Below, piece after piece: positions 2,446-44,729 of a stretch of DNA of 46,183 nt. The stretch is from IMG/VR virus record IMGVR_UViG_3300031673_000102. The stretch is one strand, 5' to 3'. The position numbers were made by a program, and so were the translations under genes. The stretch comes from a virus. The notes under the pieces were generated by a model, which saw only the letters and a list, made by a program, of their open reading frames with translations, did not search any database and had not been told where the DNA came from. Each line of letters begins with the position of its first letter. The stretch's first letter is position 1.

Positions 2446-3297
2446 ATGAAGATTATCAAACCATCTGTAGAGTTTTTTGGCGCCGTACCGACAGACTATG
2501 CTGGGGCACTGGCTTTCATTGAGAAGGCCGGGAGGACTTGCTACAAGTCTGAGGACAAGATCACTGCCGACAGTGCCGAGGGGTTTGTCAAGCGCTTGAT
2601 TAAGGCTAGGCATCTGGCCATGGTGGAGCACAGTAATTTTGTGGTGCGCATCCCGCTAGGTACTGGGGCCTCCGAACGGATACAGTCTGCCGACAAATAC
2701 TTGAACGTGTTTAATGATGAAGACTACGGCTATATCGGTGGGAGCTTAACCGCGTGGGTACAAACTCCATACCTAGCTGCAAAGGGAATGTTATTGTTCC
2801 GAGGGGTATACGGAGAGTTGTTTGGTCTGAATGTCGTTGATGGGAAAACTGACTGGCAAGTCTGCCCCCACAACGAAATCCCCAAAGCCCTCCACCGCTA
2901 CTCGGCCAAGTTCATCTGCGACCGGGGAGTCAGCCACGAACTTGTCCGGCACCGGCCTTGCAGTTTCGCTCAGGAGTCCACCCGCTATGTCAACTACGGC
3001 GGCAAGGACATGGAGTTCATTGAGCCTGCTGGGTTTGAGGAGTGGAGTCCTGGCAACCAGCAGAAGTTTGCAAATGCCTGTGGGCGATCTGAGGAGCTGT
3101 ACAAGGCAATGCTTTATGGTGGACTATCCCCCCAACAGGCTCGGGCTGTGCTGCCGAACTCCCTCAAAACCGAGATCATCATCACTGCCGATGCCGCTGA
3201 GTGGGCGCACATCAAGAAGTTGAGAACACATCCATCTGCCCATCCTGACATGGTGCGGATTATGAACATGATGCCTTGGAATGATTTCCTGTGTTGA
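2446..3297 (+). CDS. thyX: Flavin-dependent thymidylate synthase ThyX
   Basis: ThyX signature RHRPCSFAQESTRY (RHRxxSxxxxSxRY). ATG 2446 is preceded by AAGGAG. The track ORF start at 2371 is probably too far upstream. Confidence 0.9.
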   Translation: MKIIKPSVEFFGAVPTDYAGALAFIEKAGRTCYKSEDKITADSAEGFVKRLIKARHLAMVEHSNFVVRIPLGTGASERIQSADKYLNVFNDEDYGYIGGSLTAWVQTPYLAAKGMLLFRGVYGELFGLNVVDGKTDWQVCPHNEIPKALHRYSAKFICDRGVSHELVRHRPCSFAQESTRYVNYGGKDMEFIEPAGFEEWSPGNQQKFANACGRSEELYKAMLYGGLSPQQARAVLPNSLKTEIIITADAAEWAHIKKLRTHPSAHPDMVRIMNMMPWNDFLC

Positions 3298-3312
3298 TTA
3301 AATCCACATAGC
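3288..3312 (+). promoter_or_regulatory. 25-bp dyad motif copy 1: CCTGTGTTGATTAAATCCACATAGC
   Basis: Invariant GATTAAATC core. Overlaps the thyX stop codon and ends 15 nt before ATG 3328. Confidence 0.7.
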
Positions 3313-3327
3313 AATATGGAGACATAT

Positions 3328-3504
3328 ATGAAACGTATAGAAATTAAAAAAGAAATACGAATAGTATTAGAACTTACTGAAATAGAGGCTAATACACTTA
3401 AAGGGTTAATTCAAAATCCTATAACAAATAATGAGGAAGAGTGTATATCTAAATTTCGTTCAGAATTATTTAACTTATTAGATATTGAAGCCTGGGATAG
3501 GTAA
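3328..3504 (+). CDS. Hypothetical protein
   Basis: ATG 3328 follows GGAGA (3318-3322). The alternative ATG 3316 has no SD. Confidence 0.5.
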   Translation: MKRIEIKKEIRIVLELTEIEANTLKGLIQNPITNNEEECISKFRSELFNLLDIEAWDR

Positions 3505-3509
3505 ACAAG

Positions 3510-3695
3510 ATGAAATCATTAAAAAGAAAAGAGTTTGAAAAAGCTAAATGGATTCCAGATCGTCTTGGCTATCCTATAAATCCAAAGGCTGATCTTAAAT
3601 GTAAAGAATGTGGCGGACACGGAATAGTTGATGTAGGTTATACTGGATGCTCATTAGAAAATTGTCCCTCATGTCATATAAAGGATACTGTATGA
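3510..3695 (+). CDS. Small zinc-finger protein (DnaJ-type CxxCxGxG-like)
   Basis: CKECGGHG ... CPSCH. ATGA overlap with the polymerase start. Confidence 0.55.
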   Translation: MKSLKRKEFEKAKWIPDRLGYPINPKADLKCKECGGHGIVDVGYTGCSLENCPSCHIKDTV

Positions 3696-6229
3696 TACCC
3701 AAAGCAACATACGTCCCATCTTCGGGCGACAAACTAACTGCCAAGTACATCGTGATAGGCGAGCAACCTGGTCGATCTGAAGTAATGAAAGGTCGTCCAT
3801 TCTGTGGACTATCAGGCTTGGAGCTTGATGATAATCTTCACAAGGCAGGGATCACTAGGAGTGAGTGTTACTTTACTAATGTCATTAAAGATATAGACCG
3901 CCCTATTGCTCACTACATAGAGTTCACGAAGAAAGGTCCGGTAATCCATCCTGAAGGGCAGGAGTATATCAACCAACTGGCCGCTGAAATCAACTCATGT
4001 TCAGCTAAGGTAATCATAACCCTGGGAAATATACCTCTCTTTGCACTCACCGATAGGTGGGGTATTAACCGCTGGCGTAGTTCCATTCTCCGCTCCAATC
4101 TAATTGGTGGAGATAAGATAGTAATCCCTGCACTTCACCCAGATACTATCACTTACAAGTATGTCTACAAGAACAAACGTCTTCTGATCATGGATCTTAA
4201 ACGGGCTAAGAAGATCCAAGAGAATGGGCACATTCCTACCCCTCGTCAGATAACAATACGTCCTACCTTCTCACAATCTATGCAGTTCCTCACAGCCTGT
4301 GAGCAGTATGGTCTGATGGGGAATCCCATCTCATACGACATTGAAGTAGATGTATTCAACGGAGAAATGACCTGTATCTCCTTTGCCTACGATGCTGAGA
4401 ATATCATCAGCATTCCTTTCACATGTGAACATGGAGATTACTTTACCATTGATCAAGAGATAACCATTCTCCTTAAGATAGCCAGTCTACTAGAAAATGC
4501 TGAGATAGAAAAGTGTGGGCAAAATCTCTGCTTTGATTCCCACTATATGCTTCGTAAGTATGGGATCAAGGTAAGGAATATGCACGACACTATGATAGCT
4601 CAGAAGACCCTCCTCCCTGACTATGCTGTAGGTCTGCATTTCATCTGCTCTCTTTATACTGACATCCCATACTACAAGGATGATGGTAAGTATTGGCTGA
4701 AGGGAATAGGAAACTTTGAGAGTGGTTGGAGATACAATGCTCTTGACTCAGCAGTCTGTGCTGAAGCCCTGCCTAAGCAACTCCAAGATCTGATCCGTCA
4801 GCAGAACTACTATGCTTATGAGCGTAAGTGTAAAACTATCCCTGCCTACGTCTACATTATGGAGAAGGGAATTCGAATAAACGTAGCCTCCATGACTCAG
4901 GCTTACAATGAGATGGGCCATGAGATGGAGGATACTCTAAAGGAACTTCACAAGGTTTGTAAGTTTGACATCAATCCCAACTCACCTAAACAGGTAGCTA
5001 GTTATTTCTATAAACAGAAAGGCTTACCAGCATATAAGAATAAAACCGGAGGAGACACTACAGATGAGAAAGCACTTAAGAGGATTGCAAGAAAAGGTTA
5101 TGGAGAAGCTTCACTCATCCTTAGACTCCGGGGACTTTCAAAAGAGCGAAGCACTTTCCTCGACCCTGCTAAAGTTGATGTAGACGGAAGAATGCGGTGC
5201 TCATATAATCCCGTCGGAACCAGATTCTCCAGAGTTTCTTCCTCTGAAAACATATTTGGAACAGGAAATAACTTGCAAAATCAACCTCACAGAGTCCTCA
5301 CCCATTTCTTAGCAGACCCTTGGCATATCTTTTATGGGCTGGACTTAAGTCAAGCTGAGAATAGATTGGTCGCCTACATCGGCCGCATCACTCAGATGAT
5401 TGAAGCCTTTGAAAGAGGTGAGGATATTCACGGACTGACTGCCAGAATTATGATGAACATCTTCTTCAATGGTAAGTCTGATCACTTAACTGTGAAGGAC
5501 TTAGCCCCTATTGGCGATGGTAAGAAGACATGGCGTGACTGGGGAAAGAAAGCCAATCATGGTCTTAACTATGACCTCGGCTTTAAGACCTTCTCCTTGT
5601 ATAATGAGATCCCTGAACGTGATGGTAAGATGATTGTTGACATCTATCACAAAGCATATCCTGGGGTGCGAAGTGGCTTTCATGCTTACATCAAACAATG
5701 CATCAACAAGAATAGAACCTTAACTAATTACATGGGTCGTAAGACTCTCTTTACTGATCGCCTTGACGACGCACTCTATAAGGATGGCTATGCTTGCATA
5801 CCTCAAGGAACAGTTGGAGATGTGATTGATCAGAGGGGAATCAACTATGTATATTATAATACTAACCCACTCTTTAAATATGTTCAACTATTAATTCAGG
5901 TACATGATCAGATAGGATTTCAAATCCCATCTCCTCTGCATCCTGAAACTCCAGTGAGTTGGGAAGATCACTCAAGGATTCTGACCATGGTTAAGCAGAG
6001 TCTTGAGACACCACTCTATACTCACTATGGACAGCGGTTTATAATCCCTGCTGATGTAACTATGGGAGTTTGTCTTAATAAAGAATTAACTTTTGAAAAT
6101 CTGCGAAAGAAATATCCTTCAAATATGGCAGCAAATATGACAAAGGCTAAGGATCTTAAATCTATTGATCCTCAATCTATTGAACAATCTTACTATGAGG
6201 TAACACAAGGATGGCTACCGACGGTATGA
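3692..6229 (+). CDS. Family A DNA polymerase with N-terminal family-4 UDG-like domain and 3'-5' exonuclease domain
   Basis: UDG-like: GEQPG...RPFCGLSG and ALHPD. Exonuclease: YDIEVD, NLCFDSHY, YNALDS. Polymerase: LDLSQAENRL (motif A), KKANHGLNYDLG (motif B), VHDQ (motif C). Start moved to ATG 3692 (ATGA overlap, AAGGA upstream). Confidence 0.9.
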   Translation: MIPKATYVPSSGDKLTAKYIVIGEQPGRSEVMKGRPFCGLSGLELDDNLHKAGITRSECYFTNVIKDIDRPIAHYIEFTKKGPVIHPEGQEYINQLAAEINSCSAKVIITLGNIPLFALTDRWGINRWRSSILRSNLIGGDKIVIPALHPDTITYKYVYKNKRLLIMDLKRAKKIQENGHIPTPRQITIRPTFSQSMQFLTACEQYGLMGNPISYDIEVDVFNGEMTCISFAYDAENIISIPFTCEHGDYFTIDQEITILLKIASLLENAEIEKCGQNLCFDSHYMLRKYGIKVRNMHDTMIAQKTLLPDYAVGLHFICSLYTDIPYYKDDGKYWLKGIGNFESGWRYNALDSAVCAEALPKQLQDLIRQQNYYAYERKCKTIPAYVYIMEKGIRINVASMTQAYNEMGHEMEDTLKELHKVCKFDINPNSPKQVASYFYKQKGLPAYKNKTGGDTTDEKALKRIARKGYGEASLILRLRGLSKERSTFLDPAKVDVDGRMRCSYNPVGTRFSRVSSSENIFGTGNNLQNQPHRVLTHFLADPWHIFYGLDLSQAENRLVAYIGRITQMIEAFERGEDIHGLTARIMMNIFFNGKSDHLTVKDLAPIGDGKKTWRDWGKKANHGLNYDLGFKTFSLYNEIPERDGKMIVDIYHKAYPGVRSGFHAYIKQCINKNRTLTNYMGRKTLFTDRLDDALYKDGYACIPQGTVGDVIDQRGINYVYYNTNPLFKYVQLLIQVHDQIGFQIPSPLHPETPVSWEDHSRILTMVKQSLETPLYTHYGQRFIIPADVTMGVCLNKELTFENLRKKYPSNMAANMTKAKDLKSIDPQSIEQSYYEVTQGWLPTV

Positions 6230-6428: not shown

Positions 6429-7631
6429 ATGCCTCGTAGACTTGCCGACTGGCTGGACTCTTACATGGAGTTCACTGATCAAAGTGAACCTCCAGAACTC
6501 TTTCATATATGGACAGCTATCTCCACAGTCGCTGCTGTTCTCCAAAGGAAATGTGTAATTAACTGGGGGCCTATCCGCTTCTTCCCCAATATGTATGTAG
6601 TGCTATGTGCCCCTCCTGGTAAGGCTCGTAAGGGTACAGCCATGGCTTATGGTTCCACATTCCTTTCTCGCATTGGAGTGAAGGTAGCTGCGGAATCTAT
6701 AACCAGGGAGGCTCTAGTCCGTGAGATAATGGAAGCTGCAACTACTGAGATTAATGATGAGACTGGAGAGCTTACTTTCCATTCTTCACTTACCATTTTC
6801 TCTCAGGAGTTAACAGTATTTCTTGGCTATAATCAGCAGCAACTGATGATGGATCTTACTGACTGGTTCGATTGTGGGAGAGGGCCAGAAGGAAAGTGGA
6901 CTTACCGTACCAAGCATCAAGGTACTGATGACATCACCGGGATTTGGATTAACCTGATTGGGGCCACAACTCCTGGCCTACTTAGATCAACCCTTAGTAT
7001 GGATGCTATCGGCGGTGGATTAACTTCACGAATTATCTTCGTGTATCAAGAGGAGAAAGGAAAGTCTTGCCCAGTTCTCTTTCAAACTCCGGAGATAATT
7101 AAACTTGGTGAGGATCTCTATTCCGACCTTGAGCAAATCTATTTACTCAAGGGACAGTTCAAACCATCCTCAGACTTCATTGACTTATGGGTTGAGTGGT
7201 ATGTTAAGCAAGAGGGTAGAACTGTATTCAACACCCCTCATCTTGAAGCCTACTGTGAACGCCGCCCAGTTCATGTAATGAAACTATCCATGATCCTAAA
7301 CGCTTGTCGCACAGATAGCATGGTGATTACATCTGTGGATCTTCAGAGGGCTATCAGCCTATTGGAAAAAACTGAATGCCACATGCCTAAGGTCTTCTCA
7401 GGTATAGGTAAATCTCAACATGCTGAAGTACTCAGCAAGATAATGAATGAGATTGGTTTGACTGGTACAATCTCACTCAGAGAACTTCAGAACAAATTCA
7501 AGTACGATGCCGATGCTAGAGTCCTAGATCTTATTGTTCAAACTCTGAAGAGCATGGGCTTTATCTCCACAAGAGATACAGAGAGTGACACAATCCTTAT
7601 ACATAATACTAAGGGAGGTGTCCAGTCATGA
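6429..7631 (+). CDS. DUF3987-like P-loop ATPase (putative replicative helicase or initiator)
   Basis: N-terminal pattern ELFHIWTAISTVAAVL... followed by VVLCAPPGKARKGTA (Walker-A-like). Sits beside the polymerase. GGAGG upstream. Confidence 0.5.
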   Translation: MPRRLADWLDSYMEFTDQSEPPELFHIWTAISTVAAVLQRKCVINWGPIRFFPNMYVVLCAPPGKARKGTAMAYGSTFLSRIGVKVAAESITREALVREIMEAATTEINDETGELTFHSSLTIFSQELTVFLGYNQQQLMMDLTDWFDCGRGPEGKWTYRTKHQGTDDITGIWINLIGATTPGLLRSTLSMDAIGGGLTSRIIFVYQEEKGKSCPVLFQTPEIIKLGEDLYSDLEQIYLLKGQFKPSSDFIDLWVEWYVKQEGRTVFNTPHLEAYCERRPVHVMKLSMILNACRTDSMVITSVDLQRAISLLEKTECHMPKVFSGIGKSQHAEVLSKIMNEIGLTGTISLRELQNKFKYDADARVLDLIVQTLKSMGFISTRDTESDTILIHNTKGGVQS

Positions 7632-7945
7632 AAGCCCTAGTGGATATGCTTCACTTACTTCTCTGTCAGATGCCTCATATCTATGACATTATGAAGATTG
7701 TTCATAGGGAAGAAGGTAACTGTTACTACTATCTGGAAAATGATATAGCACATGGTGATACCCTTCCAGACCACTTGAAGTGGCGTAAGGTAGTAGAAAA
7801 CTTTAAAGCCTCCACCGGAATGGTTACCGATAAGGAGGCTCTAGAGTTTATTAAAAGAAGTATAGAATGTACTCAAAATATTAAAAGGTTAGTAGGTACT
7901 AATGAAGCTAAAGTAAATTTCATTCGTACTCTTATAGACCTTTAG
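7628..7945 (+). CDS. Hypothetical protein (last gene of the plus-strand arm)
   Basis: ATGA overlap with the upstream gene and GGAGG SD. Its 3' end overlaps the convergent 1511-aa gene by 14 nt. Confidence 0.55.
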   Translation: MKALVDMLHLLLCQMPHIYDIMKIVHREEGNCYYYLENDIAHGDTLPDHLKWRKVVENFKASTGMVTDKEALEFIKRSIECTQNIKRLVGTNEAKVNFIRTLIDL

Positions 7946-10900
7946 GTAATTTAAGGGAGGGGCTTTCTAATTTAAAATTAGGAGTTCCTCCCTTCTTCTT
8001 TTTCTTTTCATCTATATAAATCCCCAAGATAATCTGATAAGGATCTCCCCCTCTGCTAGCAGTCTTAACTCCCTTAAGTATCTGATTAGTCATAGGAATA
8101 CCCCAAGCATATCCAACCGACTTAGCTATCAACATGCTAGCATTCAACTTCTGACGTTTAGTCATACTGCCCCAATCCATAAGATCATTAACAGCCTTAG
8201 CAGCCTCTGGCACATCCTGTGCAAACTCTCCAATTACCCCACCAAGACTACTTCCATACTTAGTTGATCCGCCCCATACTGGAAGCTTTTCAGTGAACTC
8301 TAACAAAGCACTAAAGGTGGCAGAAGGAATTCCTTTACCTTCATCTCTTGATTCCATAAACGCATCAACAGGTGTAGGAAATGGAGAGTTAAGTCCCGCT
8401 GCTTTGAACATTTCTCCTATAACCATTACACCTATGCTGTACCTAAAAGCTCTACTTACCTGTTGAGGTTTAGTTATATCAGGATTTTTAACCCCAGCTA
8501 TATCCTGTAAGATATAATTAAAATCTGCGATTCCAAAGGTCTGAAGAAGCGTAAGCCATTTGGTAGCAATGCTGGCCTGAATAGGAGAAACAGCTCCTCT
8601 AGTTCCCATACCTTGAGTTCTCTCTACAAGATCATCAGCATAGGCTATAGCATCTTTTTCCCTTAACTTCAATTTACCTTTAGCATAATGAAATCCAGCA
8701 TTCCATCCAATCTCAGCTACCACACTATCGATTAGGTCCATAGGGGCAAAAGCCATCTTAGTGGCTATAGCCTTTCCTCCCTTCAGAGTTCCCAACCTCA
8801 TCTGTTCTACAAAATCACTCCATATCAATTCAGCTTTACGGATATGAAGAGAGTTGGAAAGAGTCTGAGCTTCTGACTTACTTCCCTTAAAAGGTTTCTC
8901 AATCATATACCTACCTGCCCCATATAAAGATGCAAGTAAACCAAGGTTAGCATATACACCTATGAGGGCCGTAAATTGTTTGACAAATGTCTGAAGATTC
9001 CCACCTATAATTCCCACAACTATATTCTTACTCAACTGTTGAGCCACATTCCTGATGAATGGATTCTCAATAGCCATAATAGAAGAGGTTCTATCTATTC
9101 CCATTATCTCATCAGACCACTTAAGAAGAAGTTGAGACAGTGCTGGGTTATGATTCTTAAGTATAACAGTACCTTTACCTCCAGGCTTAGGTAGTGGTAC
9201 TGTAGCTAATTCCTTAAGTTGTGCAGCAAGAGGCCCAGTATAAATCTCCTCCAGTGTGTAATTAAGATAAGACTCCATTACTTTGAATACATCCAACTCA
9301 ATAGGAATATCTGATACCTTACGTACCTTAGCATGAGGATTAAAAATCCCATGGTAGTCACTAGATATGGATGAAATTCTACGAGCGTCCGTAGTGGTGA
9401 TTCCCTCTAGTACTCCCATCTCTCTGAGAACATTCATCTGTCTCATGAGAGGGAGATAGTTCTCTTTACCATTTTTATCAAGGAGTCTAGGAATAGGCTT
9501 CTGTCCTGTATGAGTACGGACATAGTTAACTCTATCCAACATCTTAGAGGTAGTCTTAGTCATCCAATTGAATACTTCCATTTGCTTAGCATTCATAATA
9601 GGAATATCTTCAGGCTTAATTCCCATAGCAGTGAAGGCTTCCTCTCCACCCTTCATATTTGCATAAGCAGCCAGAGCTAATCCTTCTCTTTCTTTTTTAG
9701 TAAGACTATCCTTCTTAAGTGTAATCTCCTTACCTAAAGAGTTATACTCCAACTCTTTTTTAGTCTTAAGCTCTCTCCAATCACGATAGATTTCAGAGAG
9801 TCCAAATCTTCTAAAGGCATTAATCCTAGTTTCAGTAGCCTGAAGATACCGCTGAATAGTTCCTGTGTGAACGTTAGTTATTTCCCTCCCACTAACAGGA
9901 TCAACCTTAACATTCAAGTCTCCCCAGATATTATGTCTAGTAGCATTCATTATCTTAGAAGATAATACTTGAGTGATAGGAGGCATTACACTTTTAATCT
10001 CACCTAACTTATTCCTCTTAACAGTTTGATGTACTACGGGGCCACTTGGATTAAGGATCCTTTCAGTAATAGGATCTAAACTTCTAAGCGTTTCCTTATC
10101 CTTAGGCATTTGTGCTAAGGCTACTTTGAACTGGGCAATAGATTCAGGACTCATACCTATCATATCTAAGAATTCATCAACACTCTTCCCTGCTTTCTTA
10201 GATGCCTCAACAACTTGTTCCATTTTATCTACCGCTATACGAAGAGGGGTTACATCTACTGACCCTCTCTCATTACTGAATATACTGAAGAGATCTCTAG
10301 TTCCATCCTCACTCATCTCACCATAGTCAAGAGTCTCATCTGAGATCCTATTCCTATGTTCAGAAGTAAGACTCTCCACTCCATCTTCCCATCCAAGATC
10401 TTCAAATCCTTCCAACTCAGGTTCAATAAACCATTCTTTACTCAAGGGATCTTGAATCAACTCCCCCTTTTTTCCAGTAGCTTCCTTGTAAGTATTACCC
10501 TCAGCCTCAGACTTGAAGGTAGCAAAGTTAGAATCAATGACCGGAAGATCTTTCGGTGTTACTGGAACTTCTTTTGCTACGTTGATTTTATCCACATAGC
10601 GTTCTTTATACTTCTTAAAAGCATCTGCAATCTCTGGACGGATTGTTTCTTTAGGAGCATCTACCTTCTTACTCTCCTTAACTAAAGCCTTAAGATCCTT
10701 TTTCAACTGAACCTCTTCAGCCTTAAGAACCTCAGGAGTAGGTTCAATCTCAGACTCTACACCTTTAACTTCTTCAGGTACAAAGTCTACATTAGGACGT
10801 ACAGGAGCATTAGGATCTTTAATAACAGTCCTATAATATTTATCCCCTACCTTAGCCACCCAGAATTCCGAACCCTCTGGCTGCTCAGCTTCTATCTTGG

Positions 10901-12467
10901 CTTTAGCATAGGGGATTTCACTCATAACTTCAAGATCAGCTTTAAGAGCATCCATCGAAGCATATTCAGGAATATCAGTTTCAATGAACTTTCCTACTGC
11001 ATACTTGTCACCTATCTTAATCACTTCATGATCTGCGCCTTTACGTTCAGCAACCTTTTGTGCTGACTCAGGAGATTCAAATCTTCTCTTATCTCTAATC
11101 TCATAACCCTCACCTTTGGCCAGAGATGTATTGTCGAATTCAGAGATTATCTTATCAACAGTAATCTCAGATTTATTAACTCCGCCTAGTACTTCTAACT
11201 TCTTTCCAGTCCTCTTCTCATAAACTCCACCTACCATATTAAATAGCTGTTGAGGAAAGGATACCTGCTCGTGTAATTTATTATCCCTAATATTCTTAAA
11301 CACATCAACCATTATAGCCTGATCTTCAACTGGAATAGAGTTCTCAAAATGTTTAAGAGCTACATCAGGATTATCCATTTCAGAAGTTAGAATATCAGTG
11401 CCTGTAGGTTCTAACTTCTTACCCATTTCTGGAAGATTAATAGGAGTTGCAGTCTCCTCAACAGGGGAAATCTCAGGAGTAAGTACAGCATCTCTATCTT
11501 TAATAAACTTCTCAATCAAAGCCTGAGACTTCGGACCTACACCTTTCATACTTTTAAAATCTACTCCTTTTGCGTCTCCTTCAAGATCACTGATAATCTT
11601 AGCAGTTCTATTCAATGCCCCCTTAGCATGGCCCTCTCTCTTAAGAGCCTCAGTCATAAGACCTTCAGCTATAGACTGATTACCTTCAAACTTAGTCTTA
11701 ACATTTGAAGATACAGCTTCCTTAATATTGAAATTCCTCAATGCCTCTAATGCTGCGGATGCTACATCAGGAGGTGTATCAACTGGGATAGCCTTCTCAA
11801 CTTCCTTGAAATCTGAGATAGTTAAAGGTTTACCTTTCTGCAATTTACCAGTAACTAATGGAAGTCCAAGAAGAAGTGAATTAGTAACATAATGAGATGC
11901 TTGAACTCTTTTATCAACCTCTTCTTTTGGAGTGGTAGGATCTGCCAACTGTCTTACAGTATTCCCTACTGATCCAAGAAGAGTTCCAAATACTAAATCA
12001 ATAGGCTTCATTAACAGTTTGCCTGTATCAGTAGTAGGATGATAAGTTCCGGCAGCACTTATCTTCTCTGCAACTTTCTGTCCTTCAGCAAAACCTCCAG
12101 CTACATCAAACTTATCACCCCTACTTTGAGGAAGCATAGCTGTAAGAGCTGTAGGAGCTGATGCAACTTGCCCAAATGGGAAAGCTATAAGTCCAGAGAT
12201 CATTCCTGCAATAGCTTCAGGAACTCCCAATGCTACATCCTTAGCAGCCCCATATAATCCAGGTTCTGCAACAGAAGGCTCAGACTTAGTTAGAGATTCC
12301 ATCAATGCAGGAACTACTGCATCTCCAAAGAGAGTCTTAGGTTGAACTTTAGGAGCCTCAACTTTAACTGGAGCTGCAGGAGTAGCAACTATAGGAACTT
12401 CATCAAACTGATCAAAAGCATTACTCCCAGTTGCTACAGAGTCAAACTGATCAAACGGGTTTGCCAT
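7932..12467 (-). CDS. Giant virion protein, 1511 aa (putative internal/ejection or tape-measure-like protein)
   Basis: Largest ORF and last gene of the structural arm. Long charged, coiled-coil-like middle and hydrophobic segments near the C-terminus. No catalytic motif recognised by eye. Confidence 0.5.
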   Translation of the reverse strand: MANPFDQFDSVATGSNAFDQFDEVPIVATPAAPVKVEAPKVQPKTLFGDAVVPALMESLTKSEPSVAEPGLYGAAKDVALGVPEAIAGMISGLIAFPFGQVASAPTALTAMLPQSRGDKFDVAGGFAEGQKVAEKISAAGTYHPTTDTGKLLMKPIDLVFGTLLGSVGNTVRQLADPTTPKEEVDKRVQASHYVTNSLLLGLPLVTGKLQKGKPLTISDFKEVEKAIPVDTPPDVASAALEALRNFNIKEAVSSNVKTKFEGNQSIAEGLMTEALKREGHAKGALNRTAKIISDLEGDAKGVDFKSMKGVGPKSQALIEKFIKDRDAVLTPEISPVEETATPINLPEMGKKLEPTGTDILTSEMDNPDVALKHFENSIPVEDQAIMVDVFKNIRDNKLHEQVSFPQQLFNMVGGVYEKRTGKKLEVLGGVNKSEITVDKIISEFDNTSLAKGEGYEIRDKRRFESPESAQKVAERKGADHEVIKIGDKYAVGKFIETDIPEYASMDALKADLEVMSEIPYAKAKIEAEQPEGSEFWVAKVGDKYYRTVIKDPNAPVRPNVDFVPEEVKGVESEIEPTPEVLKAEEVQLKKDLKALVKESKKVDAPKETIRPEIADAFKKYKERYVDKINVAKEVPVTPKDLPVIDSNFATFKSEAEGNTYKEATGKKGELIQDPLSKEWFIEPELEGFEDLGWEDGVESLTSEHRNRISDETLDYGEMSEDGTRDLFSIFSNERGSVDVTPLRIAVDKMEQVVEASKKAGKSVDEFLDMIGMSPESIAQFKVALAQMPKDKETLRSLDPITERILNPSGPVVHQTVKRNKLGEIKSVMPPITQVLSSKIMNATRHNIWGDLNVKVDPVSGREITNVHTGTIQRYLQATETRINAFRRFGLSEIYRDWRELKTKKELEYNSLGKEITLKKDSLTKKEREGLALAAYANMKGGEEAFTAMGIKPEDIPIMNAKQMEVFNWMTKTTSKMLDRVNYVRTHTGQKPIPRLLDKNGKENYLPLMRQMNVLREMGVLEGITTTDARRISSISSDYHGIFNPHAKVRKVSDIPIELDVFKVMESYLNYTLEEIYTGPLAAQLKELATVPLPKPGGKGTVILKNHNPALSQLLLKWSDEIMGIDRTSSIMAIENPFIRNVAQQLSKNIVVGIIGGNLQTFVKQFTALIGVYANLGLLASLYGAGRYMIEKPFKGSKSEAQTLSNSLHIRKAELIWSDFVEQMRLGTLKGGKAIATKMAFAPMDLIDSVVAEIGWNAGFHYAKGKLKLREKDAIAYADDLVERTQGMGTRGAVSPIQASIATKWLTLLQTFGIADFNYILQDIAGVKNPDITKPQQVSRAFRYSIGVMVIGEMFKAAGLNSPFPTPVDAFMESRDEGKGIPSATFSALLEFTEKLPVWGGSTKYGSSLGGVIGEFAQDVPEAAKAVNDLMDWGSMTKRQKLNASMLIAKSVGYAWGIPMTNQILKGVKTASRGGDPYQIILGIYIDEKKKKKGGTPNFKLESPSLKLPKGL
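7955..8005 (+). terminator. Candidate intrinsic terminator of the plus-strand arm
   Basis: GGGAGG (7955-7960) pairs with CCTCCC (7987-7992), with inner pairing CTAATTT/AAATTAG, followed by TTCTTCTTTTTCTTTT. Lies inside the 3' end of the convergent minus-strand CDS. Confidence 0.45.
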
Positions 12468-13204
12468 TAGATTCCCTCCGGCAAGTATCCATATTTCTTC
12501 TTGAATTGATCTTTAAGTGCAGGATTCTTTTTGAGCAAGTCTAATGCCTCTGCAGGAGCTACTCCAGTCTTAGGAACTTTAACATATCCACCTTTCTCAC
12601 CGGTGAAAGGAATCTCCACCCCGCCAATAGTCTTAGGGGAAGTATCAGGAGCTTTAACATACTTATCATTAGGTGAGTGTTTGTTATACAATGCTACATA
12701 ACTATCAAGTGAGGCAGGATCAAGAGTATTTCCTTTACTATCCTTACCACTTGCGATAGCAGCACCTATTCCAGCTATCTGAGTATCCATATCTAACTGC
12801 TGAGCAGGAGTAACAGGCTTAGGGGCATTAGCATCCCTAGTAGTCTTATCTGATATATCAGCTCTCCTACTAGCAATATCTGCATTCCTCATAGCCACTG
12901 CAAGCAGGCCCTGACTAACTGCAATCTGAGCATCACGGTCAGCTTGACTTGCACGATCTCTAGCTTCCTGTGCAGTAATTCTTTTCTCTGCAAGTTCCTG
13001 CTGAATATTAGCCTTCTTCTCATCCAATGCTAACTTGGCATTAGCTATTACATCTTTCTTACCTGCAATATCAGCAGCTTGCTGAGCCATAACTTGATCA
13101 GCTTTCATCTTACCTATACTCTGCCCACCTAATAACATCATCTTAATTTCTTCTGGGCCTAAACCTCTAAGATCTATATCTTGCCCAGCTAGAGCACCAG
13201 TCAA
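12467..13204 (-). CDS. Virion protein, Ala/Gln-rich coiled-coil (putative internal protein)
   Basis: Position in the structural operon. Repetitive A/Q/D-rich helical sequence. Start/stop overlap with the giant gene. Confidence 0.45.
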   Translation of the reverse strand: MTGALAGQDIDLRGLGPEEIKMMLLGGQSIGKMKADQVMAQQAADIAGKKDVIANAKLALDEKKANIQQELAEKRITAQEARDRASQADRDAQIAVSQGLLAVAMRNADIASRRADISDKTTRDANAPKPVTPAQQLDMDTQIAGIGAAIASGKDSKGNTLDPASLDSYVALYNKHSPNDKYVKAPDTSPKTIGGVEIPFTGEKGGYVKVPKTGVAPAEALDLLKKNPALKDQFKKKYGYLPEGI

Positions 13205-28860: not shown

Positions 28861-28885
28861 GCTATAATGATTTAATCAACGTAGC
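28861..28885 (-). promoter_or_regulatory. 25-bp dyad motif copy 4 (sense: GCTACGTTGATTAAATCATTATAGC)
   Basis: The plus strand reads GCTATAATGATTTAATCAACGTAGC. It fills most of the 34-nt terminase-portal gap. Confidence 0.7.
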
Positions 28886-31413: not shown

Positions 31414-31798
31414 TACTATACCCTAAGGATTCTGGCTTATTCTTAGCAGCCCAAAATGCTGGCCCACCACATAAATGTACTGCTTGATAGTATATCTTTG
31501 CTCGTCGAATTCTCAATAGCTTCAGCCATTTCCAACTACAGCCATCATCTATTAACCGAAGCATATTGTTTAAGAAAACTCGATCCGCTTCATTTTTATC
31601 CTCTAATGTGGCCCCACAGATATACATCCAATCGTGGATATTACAAGCTGGAGTAATACATAGTCCATAGATTGTATCTGGAACCAGTATACCAATGACC
31701 CCTCTCGTACCACATCCATTCGTAGCATTAGCACGAGCTTCTGGTGTCAACTTCCAATACTGGTCAGGGGCAAATAACTTACTCATAATCAGTTTCAT
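31406..31798 (-). CDS. Protein with secreted-phospholipase-A2-like motifs
   Basis: NGCGTRG (resembles the Ca-loop xCGxGG), then ACNIHDWMY 23 aa later (resembles CCxxHDxxY), then EADRVF downstream. Cys-rich, 130 aa. Confidence 0.4.
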   Translation of the reverse strand: MKLIMSKLFAPDQYWKLTPEARANATNGCGTRGVIGILVPDTIYGLCITPACNIHDWMYICGATLEDKNEADRVFLNNMLRLIDDGCSWKWLKLLRIRRAKIYYQAVHLCGGPAFWAAKNKPESLGYSNG

Positions 31799-32409
31799 CC
31801 TGGTTCAATAGCCATCTGACCTGAAAATCCAGCTAGTTCTCTAGCTCTCTCTTTAATCCTTTCTATATCATCCAACGTAAAATGCCCATGGACATTTCTA
31901 GTGTCAATCCTCTGAGTAGGTTTCCCAATCTCACGATCCATCAGATTGTTCGCTTCCTTCATAATGGAAGACCCGCTCAGCTCACGGCCAAGAACTTGAC
32001 CAGTCTCCAGAGCTTCCCTCACTCTTTGAAGAGCGATAGGAGCTAGGTCAGCAATATCCTTCGCCAGGTCGATAGTCCCAGCATCACGAGCCGCCCTCAT
32101 GATGGTGATCTTATCCTGCACCACCGGAGAGTTCCTAACATTGGAAACCTGTTGAGCAGTTACATTAAGAGCTTCACCAATCTCTTGGTTATTCTGCCCG
32201 AGGATAATCCTCCTAGCAATCTCATGATGCCTATCCCACATCTCAGCTACTTGCCATCCCTTCTTCTTAGCAACTTCACCAGGCGCAGTTTTATTCTCAA
32301 TCCTACGGGCATCCTTACGATCAGGCTGTAGATACCTATCCCCTGGATAAGAGTACACTACCTCCTGCCCAGCAGCATTGATGACAGTATTTGTGATAAC
32401 ACTAGACAT
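31795..32409 (-). CDS. HTH DNA-binding protein (small terminase or late regulator candidate)
   Basis: LGQNNQEIGEALNVTAQQVSNV resembles a sigma70-region-4/LuxR-type HTH. Start set to ATG 32409, which is preceded by GGAGG. First gene of the minus arm. Confidence 0.4.
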   Translation of the reverse strand: MSSVITNTVINAAGQEVVYSYPGDRYLQPDRKDARRIENKTAPGEVAKKKGWQVAEMWDRHHEIARRIILGQNNQEIGEALNVTAQQVSNVRNSPVVQDKITIMRAARDAGTIDLAKDIADLAPIALQRVREALETGQVLGRELSGSSIMKEANNLMDREIGKPTQRIDTRNVHGHFTLDDIERIKERARELAGFSGQMAIEPG

Positions 32410-32542
32410 AAAAGTCCTCCAATTGTGAATCCATTTTACCATGCTCATAGGAATAAATCAAGGCATCATTTGGCACATAGTAGGCTACTAGTTAGCAATT
32501 CTGAACCTCGCCCAGTGGATCACCTCAGTGATCTTGGCCTGT

Positions 32543-32567
32543 GCTGTATGGATTAAATCCACATAGC
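32543..32567 (+). promoter_or_regulatory. 25-bp dyad motif copy 5: GCTGTATGGATTAAATCCACATAGC
   Basis: In the divergent control region, 153 nt upstream of the -35 box of P1. Confidence 0.7.
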
Positions 32568-32720
32568 ACAAAGTGCTAAGGATAGAGTGCTAAGAGGATG
32601 GATTAATCACCAATTGGTACCAATACCAAACTTACGACACAACTTACATACAAGGATCTATGGGGTACAGCCAACCCCCAACCCCCGATGGGGGGACCAT
32701 GCGGGTTTTGGACGCCTAAT

Positions 32721-32748
32721 TTGACAAATCCCTCAAATTTGGTATAAT
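32721..32748 (+). promoter_or_regulatory. Near-consensus sigma70-type early promoter P1
   Basis: TTGACA (32721-32726), 16-nt spacer ending in TGg, then TATAAT (32743-32748). About 180 nt upstream of ATG 32932. Confidence 0.7.
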
Positions 32749-32931
32749 GGGATCAACATCGGGGCACAATACATAACGCCCCACCGATCATTGACATAAC
32801 GGGCATCGCCCGAACCAGTAGGGCTGGCGACATGGGATACGGGAGAGCCGTAGGGCATGGCGTAACAGAGCTGGAATACATGATACCTGGCCTAAAGGGC
32901 AGATGACTTTCCGACAATAAGGAGAATCATC

Positions 32932-33423
32932 ATGAGCACAACAACTGTGAAGTTTAAAGTGGCAATGGATGCGGAGCAGAAGGCCGCGAAGAATTTCAAG
33001 GAAGTAGAGTTTGAATGTTCATTTGACGGGGTTGATCCCTCGATCATTCAGCGTCATGCCATTGCGAATCAGATTGTCATATGGCAGGGGCAGATCAGGA
33101 ACAACTGGGATAAGTTCCTCAGTGGGAAACTCCCGAAGATTGTAACATTCGGAGTCCCTCTCTTCGAGGGCGGCCGCAATCGTACCCGCCCGATTACTGA
33201 GGACGACATTCGGGCATACCTTGCCGGGAAGTCACCGGAGGAGGTTAGGGCTTTCTTGTGGAATGTACGAGGGGGATGGCAGGGGCAGATCAGGAACGAC
33301 TGGAGTAAGTTTCTCGAAGCAGGTGGCAACGAAGTAAAGCAGGAGGAAGTGGACAACACTCCAGAGTTGGACGAGGATGGCGATCCGATCTTTGTCGATC
33401 CTGGGGACGCAGAAGAATATTAA
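32932..33423 (+). CDS. First early protein: acidic, with an internal duplicated WQGQIRNxWxKFL motif
   Basis: AAGGAG SD. By my count 29 D/E versus 20 K/R. C-terminus DEDGDPIFVDPGDAEEY. 21-nt identical repeat at 33082-33102 and 33277-33297. Confidence 0.7.
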   Translation: MSTTTVKFKVAMDAEQKAAKNFKEVEFECSFDGVDPSIIQRHAIANQIVIWQGQIRNNWDKFLSGKLPKIVTFGVPLFEGGRNRTRPITEDDIRAYLAGKSPEEVRAFLWNVRGGWQGQIRNDWSKFLEAGGNEVKQEEVDNTPELDEDGDPIFVDPGDAEEY

Positions 33424-33512
33424 GTCAATCAGTAGGCTCACCAACTAACCAACCAAAGTTATCTGCTCTTTATGCTGGGTATCATCAACATTAACTTAAC
33501 AAGGAGATTATC

Positions 33513-33659
33513 ATGCTATATGCAAAATGCCCAGACTGTGGAAAGTTATTATTTAAGTATGACTCTAAATTAGTAATGATATTTGGACGTGAGATATTCA
33601 TCAAAGAAGGTCAGATATATCTAGGGGAACTTCTGTGTTCTTGTCAGGGTGGAGTGTAA
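33513..33659 (+). CDS. 48-aa zinc-ribbon-like peptide (not in the ORF track)
   Basis: AAGGAG plus 7 nt, then ATG. Translates MLYAKCPDCGKLLFKYDSKLVMIFGREIFIKEGQIYLGELLCSCQGGV. Confidence 0.45.
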   Translation: MLYAKCPDCGKLLFKYDSKLVMIFGREIFIKEGQIYLGELLCSCQGGV

Positions 33660-34203
33660 TGGGGTGCATTGGTTGAATTGAAAAAGCCGAAAGAATGGAT
33701 TAAACGCACCCCATGCACACACAAATTTAAATGGAATTGTAACGCAGTAACTGGGTAATGGCGTAACGGGAAAATGCCTTAGAGTTAAGGTGGTACCAAA
33801 AAATATTATATAACTAAGAAGGATTATATATAGATTGAATATCAACTCTCTCCATTACAAAATTTTGATTGAATGGTGTGTGTATGGGGTGGATTCATTG
33901 GGTTTATGAGACTCTTGACGCTCATTCCATTTGGTGCATTCGGGACTATCGTCCCAATAGTCAGTAGAACTATATACTGGAGGAGGTAGAGATATGGATG
34001 GACTACTGGGGTGGAGTACCTACTCGTTGAGATTCTGTGGGTGGTGGATTCGGAGTGGCCGGACTTCTGAATGGGCATTAGTGGTGATTGCTACTAATGT
34101 TCGTGTCCTTAATGTATGGAACTAATGGGATTCCGCAAGGAATCATGCTGACCTCTCCAGTCAGACTTTCTCATCTATTAGCCTGACTAGGAGAAGTTGG
34201 AAT
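33660..34203 (+). other. ORF-free, hairpin-rich region (candidate structured RNA or origin)
   Basis: No plus-strand ORF with an SD. Stems GGGGTGC/GCACCCC, GGGAC-tatc-GTCCC, GATTCC-GCAA-GGAATC and AGTCAG/CTGACT. TAATG(G/T) recurs. Confidence 0.3.
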
Positions 34204-34228
34204 GCTATGTGGATTAAATCATCATAGC
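34204..34228 (+). promoter_or_regulatory. 25-bp dyad motif copy 6: GCTATGTGGATTAAATCATCATAGC
   Basis: 39 nt upstream of the -35 box of P2. Confidence 0.7.
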
Positions 34229-34267
34229 ATAACCATCTCCACTACTCAAATTAAAATTGGTTAGATA

Positions 34268-34296
34268 TTGACAACTGGTGTAATGTGGTGTATGGT
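34268..34296 (+). promoter_or_regulatory. Sigma70-type promoter candidate P2
   Basis: TTGACA (34268-34273), 17 nt, TATGGT (34291-34296). Shares TTGACAACTG with P3. Confidence 0.5.
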
Positions 34297-34359
34297 GTAA
34301 TGGTATGAATGGGGTAATGGATTTGCCCTTAGATCAACAATAACTGGGAGGAAATATTC

Positions 34360-38091: not shown

Positions 38092-38116
38092 GCTATGTTG
38101 ATTAAATCCATACAGG
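38092..38116 (+). promoter_or_regulatory. 25-bp dyad motif copy 7: GCTATGTTGATTAAATCCATACAGG
   Basis: Begins 9 nt after the upstream stop and lies 44 nt upstream of ATG 38161. The track ORF start at 38095 lies inside the motif. Confidence 0.65.
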
Positions 38117-39412: not shown

Positions 39413-39805
39413 ATGGCTATGGAAACTGTAGAAGCAAAGTATCAGGTAAAGGACAAAGACGGTAATGTTGTACTGAATGAGGAAGGTCAGCCGTCCTGGA
39501 AGCAGGCTACTGTTGAATTTGACTTTGGTGACAATCTGGATTCTGCAGTTGAAATCTGTGGTGCTGAGGCCGTGCACTCCAACTACAAGGCCAATGCCAA
39601 GGTTGGTCTCCAGTCTATCATTCGTGCCAAGTTGAAAGCTGGTCTCTCCGTAGATCAGATTCAGACCCTCGTATCCGCTTGGAAGCCCGGTATGGTTATC
39701 GAGAAGACTCAGGTCGATCCTGCTGTGGCAATTCAGAATGCCTTCTCTTCTTGGTCTCCTGAGAAGCAGGCTGAGTTCCTGGCCTCTCTGGGTGTGCAGT
39801 CCTAA
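39413..39805 (+). CDS. 130-aa protein in a stand-alone promoter-gene-terminator unit
   Basis: AAGGAG SD plus ATG 39413, downstream of P3. The track start at 39323 lies upstream of the -35 box. Confidence 0.6.
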   Translation: MAMETVEAKYQVKDKDGNVVLNEEGQPSWKQATVEFDFGDNLDSAVEICGAEAVHSNYKANAKVGLQSIIRAKLKAGLSVDQIQTLVSAWKPGMVIEKTQVDPAVAIQNAFSSWSPEKQAEFLASLGVQS

Positions 39806-41167: not shown

Positions 41168-41192
41168 GCTATCATGATTAAATCAACATAGG
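41168..41192 (+). promoter_or_regulatory. 25-bp dyad motif copy 8: GCTATCATGATTAAATCAACATAGG
   Basis: Intergenic, 56 nt upstream of ATG 41249. Followed by AATCC, as is copy 7. Confidence 0.65.
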
Positions 41193-43708: not shown

Positions 43709-43718
43709 GGAGGAAGTT

Positions 43719-44123
43719 ATGCCTGAGACTAAGAAGTATTGCACACCATTGCCTGAAGAAGTAATTAAAATCTCTGGGGTAGAAATCACTTACGGTGGAG
43801 AGTTTGATGAAACTCTACTTGAAAAATGTTTAGACATGTTACCAGACAGTGAACTTGATGAGCCTAAGTATGAAGATGGCCCTGGAGTTCCTGGATGGGA
43901 AGATCGTAGTAAGGATATTGAGCTTGGCATAACTGATGAATCCGCTCCTCAAGCTCAGTGTGAAACCACTCCTAAATCCATTGGGTGCAAAGTGCTCGGA
44001 GATCAATTCATATATGCAATTCAAGGTCTCATCACCGACCTCGAATCAACAAAACCTCCTGGCTATATCCTCGCTATAGGAAAGCTGAAAGGTGCAATCA
44101 TCAAACTTCAGGCTGGCGACTAA
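43719..44123 (+). CDS. Hypothetical protein
   Basis: AAGGAGG SD. 134 aa. Confidence 0.5.
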   Translation: MPETKKYCTPLPEEVIKISGVEITYGGEFDETLLEKCLDMLPDSELDEPKYEDGPGVPGWEDRSKDIELGITDESAPQAQCETTPKSIGCKVLGDQFIYAIQGLITDLESTKPPGYILAIGKLKGAIIKLQAGD

Positions 44124-44176
44124 GCCTGTCCTGACAATCAGCGCATTAGCGCTAATCAACAACAAGGAGTATTGCA

Positions 44177-44623
44177 ATGAGTGAAGAAATCTATCAGGAT
44201 GTAGCAAGTGAAATGGGTGAGAGTATTCTGGACATCGACACAGGTGATGCAGTTGAGCCTACCTGTGTTGAGGATGGGGAATATAAGATCCGGATTACTG
44301 GATTCAAGAAGGACACTGATGGTAAGATCGTTCGAACCAAAACTGAGACCGGCAACAAGTTCTTCATCGTGAACTTTGATATTCCTGATGAAGCTAGTTC
44401 CAGAAACTTCAGTAAGATCTTCTCTGTGCCGGTCGAAGGTATGGATGCCAAGAAGTTGAACGGTGTTAAGTGGGATCTGGAGTGCCTCAAGCGTGCATTC
44501 AATCTCACCGAGCTGAACTTCAATGAGATGGTAGGGAGGGAAGGCTATGCTATCCTACGCAAGTCCCACTCCGAGCAGTATGGTGATCAGAATGATGTTG
44601 TAAAGTTTATCATTGGTGCGTAA
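44177..44623 (+). CDS. DUF669-like putative ssDNA-binding protein
   Basis: Acidic N-terminus and beta-rich core. The call rests mainly on the known Sak4-DUF669 gene pairing. Confidence 0.35.
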   Translation: MSEEIYQDVASEMGESILDIDTGDAVEPTCVEDGEYKIRITGFKKDTDGKIVRTKTETGNKFFIVNFDIPDEASSRNFSKIFSVPVEGMDAKKLNGVKWDLECLKRAFNLTELNFNEMVGREGYAILRKSHSEQYGDQNDVVKFIIGA

Positions 44624-44638
44624 GTAAGTTAGCAAACT

Positions 44639-44704
44639 GGTTAAGGCTCTCGTACGAAGTAGGTAAGGCAAGCCGGGCGCTCCGGTAATCCTTAACCATG
44701 TTTT
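44639..44704 (+). terminator. Long hairpin plus T-run (terminator candidate)
   Basis: GGTTAAGG (44639-44646) pairs with CCTTAACC (44690-44697). Inner stem CCGG-gcgct-CCGG. TTTT at 44701-44704. Immediately precedes dyad motif copy 9. Confidence 0.35.
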
Positions 44705-44729
44705 GCTACATTGATTAAATCCACATAGC
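44705..44729 (+). promoter_or_regulatory. 25-bp dyad motif copy 9: GCTACATTGATTAAATCCACATAGC
   Basis: Intergenic, 31 nt upstream of ATG 44761. Followed by AAGGAGG and a GGGGA/TCCCC hairpin. Confidence 0.7.

Follow-up and report, generated by a model that had tools for sequence, protein, structure and literature searches.

Repeated intergenic palindromes in a group of phages are candidate parS-like sites of a ParB/Noc-type methyltransferase fusion

The viral genome IMGVR_UViG_3300031673_000102 from IMG/VR (46,183 bp; the window hereafter, meaning the whole stretch analysed) carries nine copies of a 25-bp near-palindrome, represented here by GCTATGTGGATTAAATCCACATAGC, each centred in non-coding DNA. 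Comparison with related phages leads us to propose, at a probability of about 0.7, that these palindromes are the cognate parS-like sites of a ParB/Noc-type DNA methyltransferase fusion encoded by the same phages, which is our candidate binder. The proposal is based on covariation between amino acids of the predicted recognition helix of the fusion and bases of the site. This covariation follows a specificity rule established for ParB and Noc.

We found exactly nine occurrences of the core GATTAAATC in the window, each within a 25-bp near-palindrome (expectation 0.81 ± 0.85; none of 100 dinucleotide-preserving shuffles reached nine). An earlier note, made from the letters of the window alone, had listed these nine copies with their positions and strands (Table 1). 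The list is correct, as are its 25-mers, its invariant positions (2–3 (CT), 9–17, 21 and 23–24 (AG)) and its remark that perfectly complementary arms occur in none of the nine. Outside the nine sites, one-mismatch variants of the core are found at the expected number (19 versus 18), which leaves no room for an overlooked set of weaker or intragenic copies; the possibility raised in the note that good matches might be common inside coding sequence is not borne out. The non-coding share of the window is 6.0% by a manual gene list, and the chance of all nine site centres falling there is ~1e–11. The description of the copies as "all intergenic" thus holds for their centres and for the full length of eight of them, while copy 1 (CCTGTGTTGATTAAATCCACATAGC) overlaps the last 10 nt of thyX, stop codon included. 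Adjacent sites are 1.7–6.6 kb apart, bar one 15-kb gap, and a site typically begins 7 nt after the upstream stop codon and ends 27 nt before the next start (medians).

Some 350 loci were gathered from IMG/VR by pattern and protein-anchored scans. At least two copies of an element of the form CT-N4-(5 nt)-N-(reverse complement of the 5 nt)-N4-AG are present in 101 fetched loci, and related loci (up to ~21 kb each) hold 3–12 copies per locus fetched. Desulfofustis phage LS06-2018-MD01 (L036), the only GenBank phage clearly similar to the window, shares its two-arm layout and has a large terminase protein (TerL) 50% identical to that of the window. It contains nine copies of GCTATGTCCCAAATTGGGACATAGC, with the same length and outer arms as the window element; the inner 11 nt differ from those of the window yet are palindromic (core CCCAAATTGGG). 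The earlier note had made its case depend on the motif recurring between the genes of related phages, and it does so both in the Desulfofustis phage and in the 101 loci. The inner half-sites are genome-specific (TGATT, TAATT, TACAT, TACAA, TCAAA, TCAAT, TCATT, TAAAT, AACAA, AAACC, CCCAA, CCAAT, GGAAT and others), and the outer arms occur in symmetric variants (CTATGT/ACATAG, CTATGG/CCATAG, CTTCGT/ACAAAG, CTTTGA/TCATAG). When 122 unique copies are oriented by the genes that flank them, their logo is two-fold symmetric over 29 bp (TTS CTAYGTT.A.....T.AACRTAG SAA). Outside these 29 bp the logo contains no conserved element at a fixed distance, be it a –35, a –10, an initiation element or a T-run.

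The site at the TerL–portal junction is present in phages with seven different cores, and each time it matches the core of its own genome. Orthologous sites have thus been rewritten together in place, without independent insertion. Such concerted rewriting requires a trans-acting reader whose specificity differs between lineages. The way in which individual copies depart from their consensus points to a protein as the reader. Within core-sharing groups, 462 deviations from the group consensus affect one arm only and 58 affect both arms with pairing kept; shuffling yields 46.8 ± 5.4 such compensated deviations, and 27 of 1000 shuffles reach 58. A palindromic consensus whose individual copies are imperfect half by half looks like the signature of a two-fold symmetric dimer site, and compensatory change copy by copy, the mark of a structured RNA, was not found. 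Folded as RNA, the nine window copies range from –1.8 to –14 kcal/mol, with three or four of them weak. Copies 3 and 7 cannot be told from shuffles, and copy 7 forms no predicted hairpin on either strand with every invariant base present. The view of the earlier note that sequence is kept better than pairing, which favours a protein site at the DNA level, agrees with these counts.

The fusion gene runs across the assembly junction (45676–46183 joined to 128–951) and encodes a 443-aa protein. Pfam searches detected in it an N6_N4_Mtase domain and a ParB_N domain (PF02195, E = 1.3e–5, 25.5 bits, just below the 26.3-bit cut-off); homologues of the fusion are precomputed as PF02195. A phmmer search against PDB sequences returned Noc (E = 4.6e–6 over fusion residues 16–189). 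An AlphaFold2 (AF2) model of residues 1–169, with a predicted local distance difference test score (pLDDT) of 80, places helices at 141–147 and 152–167. Foldseek matched this model to Noc (7nfu, E = 4.7e–9, template modelling score (TM) 0.63), to the Caulobacter ParB–parS complex (6t1f, TM 0.62) and to KorB (8qa9, TM 0.60), with E values to Noc/ParB/KorB of 5e–9 to 3e–7. In both 7nfu and 6t1f the 163 aligned columns span both domains. By comparison of sequence and modelled structure, the N-terminal part of the fusion has the ParB/Noc/KorB fold, with a helix-turn-helix (HTH) immediately behind the N-domain. We found the fusion gene in 53 related loci, and the stretch LLAGGRRxxA, which includes the box II arginine motif GxxRxxA, is invariant in our alignment (A5).

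Residue 152 is the first residue of the second (recognition) helix of the HTH. Among the 41 proteins of the first set, arms with G at motif position 6 (CTATGG, CTTTGG) go with His152, or with Arg in one phage, and arms with T go with neither. In an independent set anchored on the fusion protein, His or Arg is found in 9/9 G-type and 0/11 T-type phages (Fisher test, P-value = 6e–6). Across all 48 unique proteins, position-6 G is accompanied by His (7) or Arg (5) in 12 of 12 cases and position-6 T in none of 35, which have Pro, Lys, Val, Ala, Ser or Thr instead; the single genome with A at this position has Gln. The His/Arg lineages are interspersed with Pro/Lys ones, so that L159 (Pro, T), for example, is the nearest relative of L157 and L163 (both His, G). 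Among 3060 column-by-position pairs scored over 28 representatives, the pair of residue 152 and position 6 comes fourth, ahead of every other pair with position 6 (z = 5.85). Five residues further on, Lys157 accompanies G at core position 8 (TGATT, TGAAT, TGAAA) in 7/7 proteins and is seen in 1/41 others, and Arg157 accompanies the three cores that have C at position 9.

This pattern can be set beside what is known of ParB and Noc. An alignment of a Noc fragment with the 48 phage proteins puts residue 152 on the Gln of Noc GKGQ-STIANKLRLL (MAFFT places fusion KKDP-STVAKDLQLA opposite it), which is Noc Q158, the equivalent of ParB R173. The position-6 base lies 6 bp from the dyad, and the corresponding G of parS (TGTTTCACGTGAAACA) 6.5 bp from it; at this outer variable base parS has G and the Noc-binding site (NBS) has A. 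Residue 173 is an experimentally shown specificity switch: parS binders retain Arg173, and a Gln there favours adenine as the outer variable base in the half-site (Jalal et al., PMC7383237). The phage code matches the ParB/Noc rule, with Arg or His opposite G and Gln opposite A. The ParB-domain protein had been named in the earlier note as one of two candidate binders, and the covariation of its recognition helix with the motif speaks for that choice. The other, the HTH protein at 31795–32448, is the small terminase (TerS), whose recognition helix tracks phylogeny and not the motif.

Two relatives, L161 and L202, encode the ParB-methyltransferase and lack the CT...AG motif, and both contain other repeated 25-bp palindromes. 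In L161 the palindrome is AGTCATGATA-W5-TATCATGACT, with a right part that reads TATCAYGACT (for example at 904–932, 2560–2590, 8270–8300 and 12660–12690). In L202 it is CGTTTAAAT-ATTAAACGATCT (at 777, 2056, 4830, 8608, 13869 and 16720). We read these palindromes as further variants of the site, which could extend the protein/site code.

Several observations weigh against binding by the fusion. The covariation tests disregard phylogeny, and some columns outside the HTH score as high as the HTH column: residue 434, in the methyltransferase domain, reaches z = 7.2 with position 8, and residues 434, 377, 232 and 225, in the methyltransferase domain and linker, have z = 5.5–7.2 with core positions 8 and 11. 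Phylogenetic noise may be the cause, or that part of the protein could contact or modify the site. A global mutual-information scan of fusion columns versus core type did not reveal any overall enrichment in the HTH; it was swamped by phylogeny. Box II of the fusion reads GGRR, with Gly in place of the Glu of ParB GERR, and an N6_N4 methyltransferase stands where the canonical C-terminal dimerisation domain would be. Neither that domain nor a ParA partner, which together define a canonical ParABS system, was found; Pfam and PHROGs scans of ~70 window proteins detected no ParA-like protein. The site is 25–29 bp long versus 16 bp for parS and NBS, and its invariant outer CT/AG has no assigned reader. 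Some phages have the fusion and no detectable repeated palindrome, namely Microcystis phage Mel-JY34, L165 and L203. Mel-JY34 (L206, PP438425.1) is a cultured distant relative with the two-arm architecture and the fusion gene, in which methylase, DNA polymerase and DUF3987 primase stand in matching order, and with a 5.7-kb virion protein gene; its intergenic regions instead contain a shared CCATTCT motif and ATTACGCGTAAT-like palindromes. The median of 7 nt after a stop codon could also point to a role in gene expression rather than to mere tolerance of the sites between genes. Finally, a symmetric binder leaves unexplained both the central base of the window copies and a mismatch bias across the family, which we describe next.

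The central base is the only asymmetric position of the window element, and it is A in the assumed sense strand of all nine copies. The earlier note had read this as proof of a directional motif. The count holds for the window, although the sense of copies 5 and 6, which lie in the divergent and large non-coding region 32449–34359, is an assumption, and the orientation is not kept even in close relatives. In L118 (TerL 98% identical) the copy at 12158, orthologous to window copy 2, is inverted; in L154, which has the same GATTWAATC core, the central base is T in 7/8 copies; in L036 it is A, A, A and T on one arm and T, C, T, G and A on the other. The motif is therefore not directional, and we regard the nine central adenines as a lineage-specific bias. 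Arm mismatches in the window show no strand preference (5 G.T versus 6 A.C by manual count as RNA wobbles; 5 versus 5 when oriented by genes). Among the 122 oriented copies of the family, C.A/A.C mismatches exceed G.T on the sense strand (89 versus 37). The excess falls mostly at arm positions 4 and 5, where a left CTACAT stands opposite a right ACATAG, and it is largely driven by a few related clades; of the window copies, 3, 4, 5, 7 and 9 are concerned. The bias could result from strand-specific mutation or from a real asymmetry of the site.

Among the other explanations, operators of a second phage-encoded dimeric regulator would fit the protein-site signature and the concerted evolution in place equally well. 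Together they would form a "punctuation" regulon spanning the genome, comparable to cluster A mycobacteriophage stoperators or to the conserved inverted repeats of phiC31, and would stop or modulate transcription where gene blocks meet. The location of the sites shortly after stop codons suits an expression role, the stoperator consensus is likewise genome-specific and tracks its repressor (PMC6550527), and ~40 small early proteins of the phage have no recognisable family. We nevertheless consider it unlikely. Pfam and PHROGs scans found a DNA-binding domain in no other protein, the covariation that obeys a known recognition code sits in the ParB-type HTH, and in the window family searches found no integrase or repressor, hence no lysogeny circuit to be served. 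The one conserved candidate, a 130-aa protein (39413–39805), was rejected: it has no PDB fold match at E < 0.4, and phages that share a core are no more similar in it. Two genomes with different cores were also compared for a divergent gene, and they are too divergent overall to single one out. Recognition of the sites by TerS, as pac-like starts of packaging or for synapsis, would draw on its NarL/LuxR-type HTH (7joq E = 2e–5; NarL ~1e–3) and on the circular or permuted assembly; LuxR-type HTH dimers bind ~20-bp palindromes. TerS was tried as the binder and rejected, as its SYTRNS helix is shared by five cores, including TCAAA, TCATT, GGAAT and AAAAA, and follows phylogeny rather than the core; the TerS alignment has no conserved stretch. 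Nine dispersed packaging sites would also be unprecedented, and the 127-bp terminal overlap of the window, read as an assembly artefact (see below), is no evidence of headful packaging, so that this role is very improbable. Site-specific nicking, as in the localised nicks of T5, phiKMV and LUZ24/tf-type phages, has in its favour a loose likeness of the CT/ATGT arm to the tf nick consensus TACT/RTGMC (PMC3517423) and a ligase encoded by the phage (by homology to an annotated gene of L036). However, the nick sites of tf and LUZ24 are non-palindromic and one-stranded, and those of tf are not reported as intergenic. Arms on both strands ~19 bp apart would produce staggered double-strand breaks, and no nickase was identified, which makes nicking targets scarcely credible.

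Two further explanations concern transcription and RNA. The sites lie upstream of gene blocks, and the earlier note had favoured a phage promoter, which would be used either by the host polymerase, through the left-arm TGCTAYGTT with its likeness to an extended –10, or by a phage RNA polymerase or sigma-like factor that has escaped recognition. Arms resembling TGnTAnnnT are found in 5/9 copies, and the geometry would give 5' untranslated regions of 20–25 nt. One copy resembles the T7 initiation core, a likeness to the T7-group sequence CACTATAGGGAGA on which the note had remarked and which arises from the adjacent Shine-Dalgarno sequence in that copy. The note's own observation that the genome has no RNA polymerase gene is borne out by searches of all large proteins against Pfam, PHROGs and PDB sequences; regular-expression scans for the catalytic motifs DxDGD, TxxGR and RxxxK...YG, including the 1511-aa virion protein, came back empty, and family searches of the window found no sigma factor. 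Two-fold symmetry would imply convergent firing. The essential A–11 or T–7 is missing in 4/9 sense-side arms, antisense arms are equally good, orientation is not conserved and the genome-specific inner core is left without a role. Scans for associated sigma-70 promoters or terminators gave no more than shuffles did, and nothing stands at a fixed distance in the 122-copy logo. Promoter function is thus very unlikely. A hairpin, be it an mRNA processing site, a 3'-end stabiliser, a factor-dependent terminator, or a single-stranded DNA or cruciform structure such as an N4-type hairpin promoter, would explain why the consensus is palindromic in every genome, why copies 2 and 5 fold at –13 to –14 kcal/mol and why the sites follow closely on stop codons. 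The C.A/A.C excess, which corresponds to G.T wobbles on the antisense strand, would also fit, although it comes largely from a few related clades. Against a hairpin stand the uncompensated breaks of pairing (462 versus 58), the shuffle-like folding of copies 3 and 7 despite all invariant bases, the lack of any Rfam family, the lack of an encoded RNA polymerase, virion-borne or other, and copy 5, which lies upstream of a rightward early promoter (32721–32748) and may not be transcribed. A terminator scan called no intrinsic terminator at any of the nine copies; the element is flanked by TT upstream and by S-A-A downstream, with no U-run. The terminator-like hairpin that the earlier note had placed before copy 9, as part of a terminator-then-promoter layout, has no T-run and received no terminator call. 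We consider a hairpin quite unlikely. The intergenic position of the sites is compatible with a role at gene-block boundaries and equally expected if the palindrome only fits between genes. In annotation, such intergenic repeats should not be called promoters or terminators.

If the fusion is the binder, its closest counterparts are ParB–parS and Noc–NBS. These share with the phage an N-terminal NTPase-fold domain followed by an HTH (TM 0.62–0.63), palindromic sites in several copies per replicon, and a residue equivalent to R173/Q158 that tracks the outer half-site base with a shared code. The phage fusion differs in having neither a ParA partner nor a C-terminal dimerisation domain, with a DNA methyltransferase instead, and in its box II (GGRR, not GERR). 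Its site is of odd length (25–29 bp, not 16 bp) and has a centre rich in A/T between outer CTAYG arms that are conserved, and its replicon is apparently lytic, in contrast to the chromosomal ParB/Noc systems. KorB of RK2 (IncP) has a ParB-family fold similar to the fusion (8qa9, TM 0.60), and its OB operators, like the phage sites, are palindromes found in many places on the replicon; the OB core, TTTAGCGGCTAAA, is also of odd length. As a sliding clamp that depends on CTP, KorB reaches distant targets (PMC11790492). It is a transcriptional co-repressor and partition protein that works with KorA and IncC, whereas the phage has no such partners and a fused methyltransferase. Fusions of a ParB fold with an N6_N4-methyltransferase are frequent in phages, where their role is unknown and "perhaps anti-defense" by the guess of one 2025 survey, and the nucleotide preference of these fusions varies (PMC12704722). 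Phage ParB-like proteins also activate T-dioxygenases, "repurposed as regulator of DNA base modification" (PMC13229309). Neither study describes cognate DNA sites, and the phage group analysed here offers candidate sites and a specificity rule. In the searchable literature we came across no account of the motif, nor of cognate sites for ParB-methyltransferase fusions.

Cluster A mycobacteriophages (L5, Bxb1) have stoperators, which resemble the phage sites as tens of short, dispersed, largely intergenic sites whose consensus differs per genome and co-varies with the cognate DNA-binding protein (PMC6550527, PMC9283540). Stoperators are asymmetric 13-bp sites of a monomeric repressor, oriented with transcription, in temperate phages, whereas the phage sites are symmetric and not consistently oriented, with no repressor or integrase found. 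T7-group promoters, too, occur in many copies at gene-block boundaries and pair a conserved segment with one that is specific to the phage and evolves together with one of its proteins. These promoters, in contrast to the symmetric element, are asymmetric and directional, and they depend on a phage RNA polymerase, of which none was found encoded. Since the defining features of each class were looked for and not found, the element appears to be neither a T7/N4-type promoter nor an intrinsic terminator, a structured RNA or a stoperator. Sites of CRP, FNR and LexA, the DnaA box, dif/Xer and hix/gix sites were considered and rejected, with a spacing that does not fit or a likeness limited to the core of one phage.

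The first 127 bp of the window are repeated exactly at its end (1–127 = 46057–46183), so the window represents a circular assembly with 46,056 unique bp. In L036, the relative from GenBank, an overlap of identical length is present (1–127 = 44317–44443), which points to an artefact of a k-mer-127 assembler rather than to a terminal repeat. Gene content was determined by Pfam, PHROGs and PDB sequence searches (Table 1); no tRNAs or Rfam families were found in the window.

Table 1. Palindrome copies, fusion gene and principal genes of the window
Feature	Position	Strand	Remarks
Palindrome copy 1, CCTGTGTTGATTAAATCCACATAGC	3288–3312	+	overlaps thyX stop codon; precedes DNA polymerase block
Palindrome copy 2	18665–18689	–	between genes 18697–19137 and 18218–18652; orthologous copy in L118 inverted
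Palindrome copy 3	22279–22303	–	downstream of major capsid gene; RNA folding no better than shuffles
Palindrome copy 4	28861–28885	–	TerL–portal junction; position occupied in relatives with seven different cores
Palindrome copy 5	32543–32567	+	divergent intergenic region, upstream of sigma-70 promoter 32721–32748
Palindrome copy 6	34204–34228	+	right edge of ~930-bp non-coding region
Palindrome copy 7	38092–38116	+	all invariant positions kept; no predicted hairpin on either strand
Palindrome copy 8	41168–41192	+	upstream of exonuclease/Sak4 block
Palindrome copy 9	44705–44729	+	heads gene block with ParB-methyltransferase gene
ParB-methyltransferase, 5' part	45676–46183	+	residues 1–169, predicted NTPase-fold domain and HTH
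Recognition-helix codons (predicted)	46129–46149	+	residues 152–158 (PSTVAKD); P152 aligns with ParB R173/Noc Q158
ParB-methyltransferase, 3' part, after 127-bp overlap	128–951	+	linker and N6_N4 DNA methyltransferase domain, DPPY motif
Replication arm		+	DNA polymerase, primase, ThyX, DnaQ-like exonuclease, ligase, PD-(D/E)XK exonuclease, Sak4-like protein
Family-A DNA polymerase	3647–6229	+	N-terminal uracil-DNA-glycosylase (UDG)-like domain
Primase	6429–7631	+	
Structural arm		–	small terminase, lysis genes, TerL, portal, major capsid, tail fibre, 1511-aa virion protein
TerL	28890–30407	–	
TerS	31795–32448	–	PDB 7joq E = 2e–5, 6w7t E = 4e–4

Downstream of copy 5, at a distance of 150 bp, is a promoter that matches the sigma-70 consensus perfectly (32721–32748, plus strand; TTGACA-16-TATAAT preceded by TG, 12/12), and the host polymerase therefore presumably starts the early arm. 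A 10/12 sigma-70 promoter (34268–34296, plus strand) lies 40 bp downstream of copy 6. Both are likely host-polymerase early promoters, which suggests a host with canonical sigma-70 promoters. The region 33424–34359 is a stretch of ~930 bp without a convincing gene, at the turning point of the GC skew. It contains GT-rich short repeats like GTGTAATGGGGTG (at 33654, 34278 and 34295), inverted repeats and a half-copy of the palindrome motif (ATGGATTAAACGCAC, 33695–33709), and it could be a replication origin or a region that encodes RNA. In the first early gene (32932–33423), a 40-nt segment occurs twice at 90% identity, 195 bp apart (33081–33120 and 33276–33315), which indicates an internal duplication of ~65 codons. 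The ends of the two arms converge and overlap by 14 bp (7932–7945, between 7628–7945 on the plus strand and 7932–12467 on the minus strand), with no terminator between them. In the DNA polymerase, whose gene has thyX just upstream, a domain of the uracil-DNA-glycosylase superfamily (Pfam UDG, E = 2.6e–15) precedes the 3'–5' exonuclease and polymerase domains. The 130-aa protein at 39413–39805 has more than 40 homologues of 55–95% identity throughout the phage group and belongs to no Pfam family and no PHROG. Its model (pLDDT 88) consists of a beta-hairpin and five helices, and its listed open reading frame starts 30 codons too early. In L036, a 2.3-kb gene annotated "capsid protein" contains tandem 42-nt and 132-nt repeats (31674–32318), which imply a repetitive domain in the predicted protein.

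How the fusion might act at the palindromes can be outlined by analogy with its relatives. A two-fold symmetric dimer would place one HTH on each half-site. Motif position 6 and its mirror position would be read by the residue that opens the recognition helix, and the inner bases that differ from genome to genome by residues deeper in that helix. Protein and sites would co-evolve, so that each phage lineage comes to have a site version of its own at intergenic positions that are conserved; the sites would be intergenic because a genome with 94% coding sequence leaves no room for a 25–29-bp palindrome within a gene. Once bound, the fused methyltransferase would most probably be recruited to, or loaded onto, the phage's own DNA. 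On the simplest reading, the sites would thus address the methyltransferase to phage DNA; a regulatory or organising role like that of KorB or Noc is an equally open alternative. Palindromes are the loading points of ParB, Noc and KorB, which in the presence of CTP become closed, sliding clamps (PMC11790492). It is conceivable, if doubtful, that the phage site is likewise a loading point at which a clamp dependent on a nucleoside triphosphate closes and from which it slides off, carrying the methyltransferase with it. If such a "travelling" methyltransferase exists, phage DNA, with a site every 2–7 kb, would be methylated quickly and selectively, and host DNA, which has no sites, would be spared. 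The system would then be a self-addressed anti-restriction or self-marking device whose address code, made up of site and recognition helix, diversifies between lineages.

ParB-fold/methyltransferase fusions are among the commonest ParB-like architectures in phages, with DNA targets previously undescribed. What is new here, as far as sequence comparison can tell, are candidate targets and a putative natural specificity code for them, in a large, uncultured clade of ~45-kb marine and sediment phages. The clade provides dozens of natural protein/site pairs that are directly synthesisable. If binding holds true, these pairs would furnish a panel of orthogonal ParB/site combinations for DNA labelling tools and would open a route to how phages direct DNA-modifying enzymes to their own genomes.

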